Assembly (NCBI GenBank): GCA_963765675.1
Contig: CAVXXK010000001.1
Span: 128,001-192,000, forward strand
Length of the DNA stretch: 64,000 bases
Reading direction: 5' to 3'
From: an uncultured delta proteobacterium
GTDB taxonomy: Bacteria > Desulfobacterota > Binatia > Binatales > Binataceae
Part shown: in pieces, positions 9,593 through 54,890 of the stretch
How positions within the stretch are numbered: the first letter of the stretch is position 1
How the letters are laid out: each line of letters starts with the position of its first letter
Program-made: the position numbers and the translations under genes
Notes under the pieces: generated by a model
What the model was told of the DNA's origin: nothing
Databases searched by the model: none
What the model saw: only the letters and a program-made list of their open reading frames with translations

Positions 9593-9663
9593 CGCAGTCT
9601 GATCCCTCGCCCTTTCAGGGCGAGGAATCAGACAGGGCGCGCCGCCAGGCGCCAGTCTTGCCG

Positions 9664-9757
9664 GATACCCTCTCCCTCCGGGAGAGGGCGACGCGGCGCG
9701 GCGATTGCTCTTTTTAGCAATCGCCGTGACGCGTGGGTGAGGGTGCTTGCTCTGCTC
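9664..9757 (+). repeat. BoxC-like structured repeat, copy A
   Basis: CCCTCTCCC-TCC-GGGAGAGGG hairpin, inner GGCGATTGCT..AGCAATCGCC hairpin, GGGTGAGGGTGCT tail. Confidence 0.85.
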
Positions 9758-9830
9758 TTTTAATCGCGGCGCTGAAATCGGTCCCTCACCTAACCGCGCG
9801 CCAGTGGCACCTTCCTTTCAGGGCGCGGGA

Positions 9831-10199
9831 TCAGACAGCGCCAATCGGAAAGACAGTCACGAACACCGCCTGCCAGCGGTTTTCACGCTTCGAGTACACG
9901 CGCAGGTAACGTTGATCGACCACGCGATCGGGATGCTGAATGCGGACCCGGCCCCACGTTGCCGCAGTGGGCGTGAACATCTGCATACCCGCTTCACTGA
10001 AGAACACCTGCGCTCCCTCGGGTGTCGGCCGCATCATGTCGATTTTGCCGCCCGTTCGGCCGTCAGAAAGATTAACGCGAAAATCGTCAGCCAGGATTTC
10101 GGCGAAGGCCGAACGATCATTACGCAGATAAACCTCGTTCCATGACCGGTCCAGTTCTCTGACCGCTTGTTCGTCCGCCGAAAGGGTATTGTGATCCAT
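9831..10199 (-). CDS. Nuclear transport factor 2-like (DUF4440) protein
   Basis: ELDRSWNEVYLRNDRSAFAEILADDF...YLRVYSKRENRWQAV pattern. Confidence 0.75.
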   Translation of the reverse strand: MDHNTLSADEQAVRELDRSWNEVYLRNDRSAFAEILADDFRVNLSDGRTGGKIDMMRPTPEGAQVFFSEAGMQMFTPTAATWGRVRIQHPDRVVDQRYLRVYSKRENRWQAVFVTVFPIGAV

Positions 10200-10314
10200 C
10201 GGATCTGGCCACCACGAAATATTGTTTCGCAGCATAATCGCCGATCGCGGTATGCGCCAGAATGGGTGACATGAATCGAGCACGAGTCATACTAAGAAAC
10301 CTGATTGAGGACTG

Positions 10315-10336
10315 GTGGCACAGGCTTTAGCCTGTG
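10315..10336 (+). repeat. GTGG-type REP palindrome
   Basis: GTGG-CACAGGCT-TT-AGCCTGTG. Confidence 0.7.
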
Positions 10337-10402
10337 TTCCCCCGTCGGCTACGGAGCAGAATCAATTTGTATTGGCGCGTCGTGAGGCGCCCGTCTTTGC
10401 GC

Positions 10403-10495
10403 GATACCCTCTCCCTCCGGGAGAGGGCGACGCGGCGCGGCGATTGCTTTTTTTAGCAATCGCCGTGACGCGTGGGTGAGGGTGCTGCTCTGCTC
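10403..10495 (+). repeat. BoxC-like structured repeat, copy B
   Basis: Near-identical to copy A at 9664. Confidence 0.85.
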
Positions 10496-11949: not shown

Positions 11950-12276
11950 AATCTGGCGAAGCGAACGACTCTAATTCGTGGCGATCCGGCGATGGAGCTC
12001 TGCAAACAGGCCTCGAACTCGCGATTTATCGACGCGTCCATTTTGGAGGGGGCGGGCGGTCAAGTCGATCTTCAGAAGTAACAAAACCCTTGGCGCACAG
12101 GCTTTTCATGCCATTTTGACGCCTCGCCGTTTCCCTAACGATCGTTCGGGTTTTTGCCAGATTTGTTCATGGCTGAACTGTTCAGCCTTATGCCCAATTC
12201 CACTTCGTGCAAAAGTGATCGCGTGGAAGCATCCGGCACACAGTACCGCTTCGCTCTGGGCCGCGTTCCTTCGCAA

Positions 12277-12427
12277 GCAGAGCAGCACCCTCATCCGGCG
12301 CTGCGCGCCACCCTTCGACAGGCTCAGGGCAGGCTCTTCTCACGGAGGGAGAAGGATCAGAACATGCCCGAATGCCTTCTCTCTCCAGGAGAAGGTGCCC
12401 GAACGGCGGATGAGGGTGCTGCTCTGC
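12277..12427. repeat. Inverted pair of variant BoxC-like repeats (MITE/REPIN-like) with a nested second repeat
   Basis: Perfect terminal IR GCAGAGCAGCACCCTCATCCG/CGGATGAGGGTGCTGCTCTGC, internal CTTCTC..GAGAAG hairpins, insert CCTTCGACAGGCTCAGGGCAGG at ~12312-12333. Confidence 0.75.
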
Positions 12428-12763
12428 CAGCGGCGACTCAGCTTCAAGAGTTGGAACTATAAGAATGGATCGCCGCGCCCGAGCGTCCAAAAATCGATGA
12501 CCAAAAAAGCTGCTAAAACGAACCCAATGCCCCGAATTCCGCAGCATCTACAAGTAGTTTATTTTTTGAGCCAATAAAAAAGATACCAAACGAACCCACC
12601 GAATTTGCCCGAGATCAAAAAATCCGAGGCACTACCTTGCCCAGAATCAATCATGTTTCTATTTAGGGGAGGGCCCCGGACCCGAGCGTTTCCGCATCGG
12701 GTCCGAGGCGCCTGGGAGAGGACTTGTTCAGCTCTGCCCCGCGAACGCCGTGGTGACGGCCTA

Positions 12764-29603: not shown

Positions 29604-29690
29604 GCAGCGCAGCACCCTCACCCACGCGTCACGGCGATTGCAAAAAGAAGCAATCGCCGCGCCGCGTCGCCCTCTCCCGGAGGGAGAGGG
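29604..29690 (-). repeat. BoxC-like structured repeat, copy C
   Basis: Reverse complement of copies A/B: AGCACCCTCACCCACGCG...CCCTCTCCCGGAGGGAGAGGG. Confidence 0.85.
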
Positions 29691-29893
29691 GATGGGGCAT
29701 CCGCTGGCGGCGACGACACTGGTGGGCCAGACGACCGCCCCACTATCTCCTGCTAACGCCCGAAGCGGTGGTTCACCTTGACTGCAAAAGCTTGCGGCCC
29801 TTATAGTTGCGGTGCGAGTTCGATGCGTGCCGTGGCCGGTGCGCGAGCTTCAGAAACCTCAATCCTGACACGGGAATTTGTGCTGGTTGTAAA

Positions 29894-54315: not shown

Positions 54316-54412
54316 CCTGCAGATACCCTCTCCCTCCGGGAGAGGGCGGCGCGGCGCGATGCTTGCGATTCTTTTTCGCAAGCATCGTGACGCGCGGGTG
54401 AGGGTGCTGCTC
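54316..54412 (+). repeat. BoxC-like structured repeat, copy D (abuts the DUF559 stop codon)
   Basis: Same outer architecture as A/B with a different inner hairpin CGATGCTTGCGA..TCGCAAGCATCG. Confidence 0.85.
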
Positions 54413-54781
54413 TTACTCCTCCAGCACCGCAAGAATTTGCTTGATGACGGTATCCGTTTCGCGTAAGACCACATCGTTCCCGAACCTGACTACGCGATAG
54501 CCTTGCGTCTCGAGGAACTCCTCGCGCTCATCGTCGTAAACCTGCTGCTCGACATGCTGTCCGCCATCGAGCTCGACCACCAGCTTTCTTTCAACGCAGC
54601 AGAAGTCGGCGATATAAGGACCGATCGGGAATTGGCGGCGGAATTTCAGGTCAGCGAAACGCCGTCCGCGTAGATGTTTCCAGATCGTACGCTCCGCGTC
54701 GGTCATTTCGCGGCGCAGTTTGCGCGAGTTTGTGAGCGCCTTCGCCGAGAGTAGTGGCTTATGCGTATGTGTGCGCTTCAT
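54413..54781 (-). CDS. DUF559 (Vsr-like restriction-fold) endonuclease
   Basis: LRREMTDAE..W..LR, KFRRQ.PIGPYIADF, LVVELDGGQH, GYRVVRF. Confidence 0.9.
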   Translation of the reverse strand: MKRTHTHKPLLSAKALTNSRKLRREMTDAERTIWKHLRGRRFADLKFRRQFPIGPYIADFCCVERKLVVELDGGQHVEQQVYDDEREEFLETQGYRVVRFGNDVVLRETDTVIKQILAVLEE

Positions 54782-54791
54782 GAGAAAAGGC

Positions 54792-54890
54792 GCAGAGCAG
54801 CACCCTCACCCACGCGTCACGGCGATTGCTGAAAAGAAGCAATCGCCGCGCCGCGTCGCCCTCTCCCGTGGGGAGAGGGTATCTTGCAGG
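54792..54890 (-). repeat. BoxC-like structured repeat, copy E (inverted relative to D)
   Basis: GCAGAGCAGCACCCTCACCC...CCCTCTCCCGTGGGGAGAGGGTATCTTGCAGG, starting 10 bp upstream of the DUF559 ATG. Confidence 0.85.

Follow-up and report, generated by a model that had tools for sequence, protein, structure and literature searches.

A DUF559 nuclease gene and BoxC-like, predicted triplex repeats form a widespread gene–repeat module in bacteria

A gene for a DUF559 protein in the genome of an uncultured delta proteobacterium of the Binataceae lies between two inverted structured repeats, and copies of the same repeat occur elsewhere in this genome without the gene. This raises the question of whether the nuclease and the repeat belong together and, if so, what the one does to the other. 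DUF559 is known as an orphan family (PMC1189080), and repeats of the BoxC/triplex type have been known since the 1990s; the accessible text of a 2015 survey gives neither their function nor their means of spread and leaves the matter open (PMC4666352). Both the repeat family and the protein family are already known, and their pairing is new. No paper linking DUF559, COG2852 or ycjD to BoxC, PIT, TM or flanking repeats was found within a literature coverage outside which most subscription papers and the supplement of the 2015 survey lay. An earlier note on this DNA had proposed that the nuclease serves the repeat much as RAYT serves REP sequences. The window is the whole stretch of DNA analysed (64,000 nucleotides), and coordinates are positions within it.

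The window's cassette and its repeat unit

The open reading frame at 54413–54781 (minus strand) matches Pfam DUF559 (E = 2.5e-43), the sole Pfam family over the cut-off, and encodes a YcjD-like protein of 122 residues that consists of a Vsr/EDxHD-type nuclease domain only, with E30, D59, E70, D72, H76 and D83. Its neighbours are a class II ribonucleotide reductase region and a metallophosphoesterase. The gene was said to lie between two inverted repeats of about 95 bp, and it is indeed enclosed by two inward-facing units of about 97 nt each. The 3'-flanking unit (54316–54412, plus strand) comprises an outer end (54316–54325), a hairpin (54326–54346), a 49-nt loop-2 hairpin (54347–54395), a third strand (54396–54404) and a subtype-A tail (54405–54412); its last base adjoins the stop codon, as had been claimed. 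The 5'-flanking unit (54792–54890, minus strand) comprises a tail (54795–54802), a third strand (54803–54811), a 47-nt loop-2 hairpin (54812–54858), a hairpin (54859–54879) and an outer end reaching 54890. The claimed start of this repeat 10 bp before the ATG holds for the extended tail, whereas the 8-nt tail shared by both units lies 13 nt from the ATG; the outer ends given for both repeats agree with the sequence.

The window's units contain the hairpin of BoxC, PIT and TM_ECO elements, CCCTCNCCC and GGGNGAGGG separated by a loop of 3–6 nt. This pattern matches the window at five places (9668, 10407, 29670, 54326 and 54859), and none of 100 shuffles contains any match. An Rfam scan of the window found no family, and a direct blastn search of the cassette against E. 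coli gave no match. The order within a unit is a short outer end, a C-rich arm, a 3-nt loop, a G-rich arm, loop 2, a second G-rich strand and a subtype tail, and 41 of 74 long-loop units have GATA, AATA, TATA or CATA as the outer end before the stem. The loop-2 stem contains the same opposed G.A and G.T in 68 of these 74 units. Homologous loci keep the structure rather than the sequence. In another subtype of the window's genome, and in 121 of 196 flank units elsewhere, loop 2 measures 3 nt.

ViennaRNA folding predicts the two hairpins only. The stretch beyond them, which the earlier note treated as a tail, is by its sequence a putative triplex third strand that mirrors the purine arm. Among 262 flanks examined, 183 of 226 flank hairpins have at least 8 positions at which the gene-facing strand mirrors the purine arm, compared with 38 on the outward side. 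The third strand also covaries with the purine arm: across 61 distinct arm/strand pairs, with kinship ignored, the mean mirror score is 7.08 out of 9, against 5.80 ± 0.17 (maximum 6.52) in 5000 shuffles.

The resemblance to enterobacterial BoxC that had been pointed out is supported by the hairpin and by a further G-rich strand that could form antiparallel pairs with the purine arm. Like BoxC, PIT and TM_ECO elements, the window's units have a C-rich 9-nt arm, a short loop, a G-rich arm and a second G-rich strand; they are intergenic, often form inverted pairs of two unit types, vary patchily in copy number and collapse from pairs into a single hairpin (PMC4666352). The BoxC/PIT/TM_ECO motif forms a purine-type intrastrand triplex in vitro, as judged by CD and NMR, but the same study detected no footprint of it in vivo. 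Two differences stand out. Loop 2 is a hairpin of 47–49 nt in the window's units and 3 nt in TM_ECO, and window-type units bracket a nuclease gene, whereas Holder et al. (2015) found no mobility gene for TM_ECO repeats, and the accessible text of their paper makes no mention of ycjD (PMC4666352). Because its loop 2 is 47–49 nt instead of 3 nt, the window's repeat is classed as a long-loop variant of BoxC/PIT/TM_ECO with a predicted triplex and not as a strict member.

Gene-less copies had been listed at 9664, 10403 and 29604. All three are present, as subtype-A units at 9664–9755 (plus strand), 10403–10493 (plus strand) and 29604–29694 (minus strand), but the first is not strictly solo: a degenerate short-loop unit of another subtype (about 9783–9830) faces it 39 nt downstream, and a lone hairpin (about 9604–9625) precedes it. 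The variant pair reported at 12277 is real (12277–12430, no strand assigned); its units face outward and have CTTCTC/GAGAAG stems, with the third strand mirrored accordingly. A 134-aa open reading frame, which by its appearance we take to be SnoaL/DUF4440-like, sits between two same-direction units at 9760–10403. A second family of dispersed repeats, sharing an exact core of 26 nt, is found at 12162 and at 20 other places in the genome (21 copies) and adjoins triplex units at several sites. An 11-nt motif at 12587 and 34985 has 48 copies in the genome and belongs to yet another repeat family. Both in this genus and in E. coli, an intergenic spot that carries one palindromic repeat family in one genome can carry a different one in another; at the window sites 12277 and 29604, a different palindrome family occupies the spot in a close relative.

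The window's genome contains 156 hairpins, against one match to the reversed control pattern, and 109 distinct full units. It has five DUF559 loci, all with a hairpin on each side, and two of the five are broken. In the three unbroken cassettes, the third strands are 398, 397 and 397 nt apart, and the tails differ. Hairpin pairs 300–1500 nt apart enclose DUF559 in three of seven cases. A facing partner lies within 260 nt of 44 of the 109 units, compared with 103 of 5000 random placements, and the spacers between facing units cluster at 58–63, 83–84 and 118–129 nt. Six gene-less doublets share the left and right unit types of cassette B together with about 20 nt of its inner ends, including its last codons; the middles of the doublet spacers cannot be aligned with each other. 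By sequence, these six doublets show the pattern of non-autonomous derivatives of cassette B. The proposed autonomous/non-autonomous anatomy is supported. Because two loop-2 variants are shuffled among the tail subtypes of this genome, an exchange of parts between unit copies is suggested. A RAYT was also considered as the partner of the repeat and, for this genome, rejected: the three distinct RAYT-like loci of the window's genome (C1:652526, C1:912829 and C7:68913) each have their own REP type, and no triplex hairpin lies within 600–700 nt of them. A further RAYT-like match on C10 equals that at C1:912829 in score and length and may reflect a duplicated contig.

Flanking and abundance of the repeat across genomes

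The pairing extends far beyond this genome. Loci were chosen for their similarity to the query or the Pfam model; a 60-bit profile cut left 136 of 139, full flanks were available for 130, and 1215 displaced windows served as controls. The loci come from Binatia, Desulfobacterota, Alpha- and Gammaproteobacteria, Chloroflexota, Nitrospirota, Planctomycetota and Patescibacteria. DUF559 genes are flanked by inverted repeats far more often than the controls: with some duplicates and kin included, the inverted-repeat flank score reaches at least 30 at 100 of the 130 loci and in 12 of the 1215 controls, and a C-rich/G-rich hairpin is present on both sides at 104 loci and in two controls. A further set of Caulobacteraceae loci passes the flank test in 27 of 30 cases. 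One weak DUF559-like domain in a long open reading frame, below the 60-bit cut, has no repeats. For named relatives, labelled Candidatus Binataceae or uncultured delta proteobacteria, protein identity is 76–89%. At 5 of 30 Caulobacteraceae loci, compared with 2 of 240 control windows, a GTTC-N7-GTTC box is found in the interval from the 5' unit to the gene, at most 110 nt upstream; we take it to be the alphaproteobacterial LexA consensus.

E. coli YcjD, Caulobacter VsrA (CCNA_02930) and Neisseria NGO0050 (PDB 3hrl) belong to the same protein family as the window's protein. The window's gene has a unit on both sides, whereas ycjD, a vsrA orthologue and the Neisseria homologue have a clear unit on one side only. 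YcjD is itself a DUF559 protein and is 49% identical to the window's protein; a degenerate hairpin overlaps the last codons of its gene, a full BoxC element lies about 165 nt downstream, and there is no unit upstream. Just downstream of ycjD, on the side of fabI, some 25 nt of its 3' end are present a second time. Most DUF559 genes of Enterobacteriaceae retain, as judged by eye, only the 3' unit. Upstream of enterobacterial ycjD-like genes, which have no 5' unit, a CTGGAA/TTCCA-type palindrome and a CTGGCA motif are shared. At the Neisseria homologue, a triplex-type unit adjoins the 5' side. The vsrA orthologue, located through the primers given in PMC12907096, ends inside a triplex-type unit at its 3' end, and a second unit faces that one.

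The presence of the gene also goes with the number of repeats. A genome was scored as repeat-rich at 10 or more hairpins, and the gene was called in relatives at E ≤ 1e-20. The comparison is affected by a hairpin pattern that misses divergent subtypes, by the many draft genomes, which lose repeats, and by kin that are not independent. The repeat is not equally abundant without DUF559; it is much rarer in all four genome sets. Among relatives, 19 of 21 genomes with the gene and 2 of 20 without it are repeat-rich (medians of 51 and 1 hairpins). The corresponding fractions are 19/21 and 11/150 in Enterobacteriaceae, or 18/19 and 11/75 when only genomes of at least 3.5 Mb are counted, and none of the 11 enterobacterial genomes that reach 40 hairpins lacks the gene. 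In Caulobacteraceae they are 80/87 and 10/24 (medians of 37 and 5.5), and in a phylum sample of 151 genomes, from which five fragment-bearing ones were set aside, 24/40 and 19/106 (medians of 13 and 1). However, the highest hairpin numbers without a detected gene are 38 in Enterobacteriaceae, 39 in the phylum sample and 172 in Caulobacteraceae.

The gene itself is patchy, being present in 21 of 171 Enterobacteriaceae. E. coli K-12 carries ycjD and 27 hairpins, and ycjD is present in 3378 of 5426 E. coli genomes; in several phylogroups it is replaced by eefRABCD (PMC12817139). In a spread of 60 E. coli rows, from which one plasmid row was dropped, 37 ycjD-positive records have 16–32 matching places each, one of which is ycjD itself, whereas 22 ycjD-negative chromosomes have 2–23 (median 5). 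Ten of these 22 show 10–23 places, and two of them that were checked have 15 and 25 hairpins and no stand-alone DUF559. Gene presence predicts repeat abundance, yet because gene-less genomes can hold many repeats, the gene is not needed for their persistence. The idea that loss of the cassette depletes its own subtype found no support: a cassette-less relative keeps 31 subtype-A tails, compared with 20–35 in four relatives with the cassette and 63 in the window's genome.

This link could also arise if the enzyme were a caretaker to which the genome becomes addicted: slippage or recombination would spread the repeats, their folds would obstruct replication, and the nuclease would resolve the folds without propagating the repeats, so that repeat-rich genomes would keep the gene. 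Such a caretaker predicts the same association between presence and abundance as well as purifying selection on the gene, and both the LexA-type box in Caulobacteraceae and the block to DNA polymerase that PIT/TM elements cause in vitro (PMC4666352) are in its favour. However, it explains neither the physical bracketing of the gene, nor several paralogues per genome with a subtype of their own, nor the relocation of cassettes and their residence inside other genes described below, and gene-less genomes with many repeats also argue against it. We consider it unlikely, though foremost among the alternatives.

Divergence, relocation and collapse of cassettes

Repeat and protein appear to diverge together. 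When 47 proteins of the window's class are placed on a tree, supported clades hold, as judged by eye, to a single type of tail or third strand in their different host genomes, and one genome carries several protein clades.

Cassettes also move, invert and collapse. At the window's locus, the cassette is found in the same orientation in three relatives, one of which has an early stop, and is inverted in another; the closest relative has only a fused single-hairpin scar, one relative has another context, and two could not be anchored. One relative carries two highly similar cassettes at unrelated loci, with homology that stops about 5 nt outside the hairpins. Paralogue C is found in two genomes at loci unrelated to each other, and a site that paralogue C occupies in the window's genome is taken by a different paralogue in another. 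Some cassettes, with their repeats translated, sit in frame within HsdR, HsdS and DUF1156 genes. The loop of one cassette's 3' hairpin is interrupted by an apparent insertion-sequence end.

The earlier note had proposed aligning relatives to look for empty sites. No clean empty site was found at 30 loci of two close relatives or at four window sites, two of which lacked an anchor on at least one side; most of the sites compared with the two close relatives are inherited or collapsing. By eye, no target duplication is seen at six doublets, two relocated cassettes and two E. coli sites. Pfam detects no DDE-type transposase in the cassette, so that neither hallmark of an IS or a MITE is seen. In E. 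coli, a BoxC doublet and a palindrome-bearing segment stand in for each other at yggL–yggN (65 of 5426 genomes with the doublet) and barA–gudD (189 of 5426), the replacement being readable in either direction; the palindrome in these segments is presumably REP-like. Both doublets were first found in ycjD-less query strains.

These events could instead be the work of host enzymes or of a separate trans-acting enzyme that recombines the repeats, with DUF559 hitchhiking as passive cargo and having an unrelated activity. Host recombination acting on inverted or direct repeats yields inversion and collapse, triplex units swap with other palindrome families at the same intergenic spots, and repeats persist without the gene. 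However, the bracketed gene family is one and the same across many phyla, while the repeat sequence varies from one protein clade to the next; hairpin pairs in the window's genome enclose no other recurrent gene family, and the RAYT-like genes of that genome carry other repeats. Mere hitchhiking comes second among the alternatives and is likewise improbable.

The enzyme and the proposed mechanism

The predicted structure of the window's protein has a pLDDT of 85.7. Its closest solved folds are Neisseria NGO0050, the catalytic domain of the homing endonuclease I-Bth0305I (3r3p; profile E = 1.4e-4, Foldseek E = 3.6e-4) and Vsr (1vsr; Foldseek E = 0.03), so that the Vsr-like nuclease fold ascribed to it is confirmed by Foldseek and profile matches to EDxHD/Vsr structures. 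E30, D59, E70, D72, H76 and D83 are each at least 99% conserved in 204 domains. Values of dN/dS are 0.04–0.18 among five orthologues, which shows purifying selection on the gene. At position 101 (codon at 54481), the window's protein has Gly, whereas its four orthologues have Trp. Members of the family are seldom found on phages (2 records) or plasmids (30 records, many of them chromosome-sized).

EDxHD homing endonucleases and Vsr share the nuclease fold and the catalytic residues with the window's protein. However, EDxHD homing endonucleases reside in an intron or intein, whereas the window's protein is a 122-aa single domain, free-standing between repeats; I-Bth0305I (PDB 3r3p) has an N-terminal DNA-binding domain that the DUF559 family lacks (PMC3239194). 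Vsr is linked to a cytosine methylase, whereas structured repeats and no methylase lie beside the window's gene.

Caulobacter VsrA, the only member for which genetics was found in the literature, is induced by damage, and scmA mutants require it for their SOS response; it has been proposed to act in T:G-mismatch repair (PMC12907096). By extension, DUF559 would nick T:G mismatches that arise from methylcytosine deamination, and the repeats would only regulate the gene or happen to flank it. The Vsr-like fold, the SOS requirement and damage induction of VsrA and the presence of all five proposed active-site residues in the vsrA orthologue, one position earlier than published, are consistent with very-short-patch repair; it is nevertheless the weakest of the alternatives and quite improbable, because the source paper calls the repair role a hypothesis and its accessible text reports no nuclease assay (PMC12907096), a triplex-type unit overlaps the end of the vsrA orthologue itself, the window's neighbours are not methylases, and multiple paralogues, broken copies (2 of 5 in the genome), patchy presence (21 of 171 Enterobacteriaceae) and subtype matching are not predicted.

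The closest parallel in organization is RAYT/TnpA(REP). As in those systems, a single small gene is flanked by its own palindromic and also dispersed repeats, gene-less inverted doublets keep their ends while their variable spacers appear to favour certain lengths, more than one gene–repeat subtype exists per genome, and the mostly chromosomal modules are vertically kept and sometimes lost (PMC3333891, PMC3116915). The layout is RAYT-like without an HUH enzyme, as had been anticipated: the gene is flanked by cognate dispersed repeats, and neither Pfam nor the fold reveals an HUH/Y1 tyrosine transposase. RAYT is an HUH/Y1 enzyme that cleaves and recombines BIMEs (PMC3333891), whereas DUF559 is of PD-(D/E)XK type by sequence and fold. 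REPINs are mainly inverted doublets, whereas only 44 of 109 units in the window's genome have a facing partner, and the predicted triplex third strand distinguishes the DUF559-associated repeat from RAYT-associated REPs (PMC3333891, PMC3116915). By analogy, the DUF559 system would rather probably resemble RAYT–REPIN in anatomy and a homing endonuclease in chemistry, in that a cut would be followed by host repair.

Pairing of gene and repeat, subtype matching, copy-number correlation, relocation, inversion, collapse, in-frame residence, intact catalytic residues and purifying selection are all observed features of this module. We infer from them that DUF559 may bind or nick the hairpins and propagate them. 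In somewhat stronger terms, it has a slightly better than even chance of being, together with YcjD, the cognate enzyme of BoxC/triplex repeats, which would nick the folded unit and leave host repair to copy, swap or delete units. It is about equally plausible, as part of the same reading, that the repeat–gene–repeat arrangement is a cassette, selfish or domesticated, with gene-less derivatives. A unit that becomes single-stranded would fold into a hairpin and a purine-motif triplex, to which the nuclease would bind. The enzyme would then nick in or beside the folded unit. Vsr nicks at T:G, and the conserved G.T opposition in the loop-2 stem is for this reason a candidate nick site in this subtype. 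Host recombination or repair would use another unit as template, so that units would be copied, swapped, inverted or deleted, and the whole cassette may occasionally be moved in the same way. The copying would have to fall to the host because, to our knowledge, the DUF559-type fold has no strand-joining chemistry; the PD-(D/E)XK enzymes we know of hydrolyse without joining strands.

A bolder version of the cognate-enzyme reading is possible but rather doubtful, namely that the module represents a new class of mobile element, in which a PD-(D/E)XK nuclease would read a DNA triplex and nick it, and host repair would spread repeats and cassette, even in frame; ycjD would then be the mobiliser of BoxC, and VsrA would be selfish rather than a repair enzyme.

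The gene–repeat module is real and widespread, and its function as outlined here is inferred. The link makes both the spread of the repeats and the role of DUF559 directly testable in E. coli K-12 and in Caulobacter, in which a vsrA deletion strain exists (PMC12907096). As a candidate agent for the spread or maintenance of BoxC-type triplex repeats, DUF559 can be put to the test. If the proposed relationship is true, DUF559 would join RAYT as the second class of enzyme that runs a family of bacterial repeats, and it would be a candidate for a protein that naturally partners an intramolecular DNA triplex.
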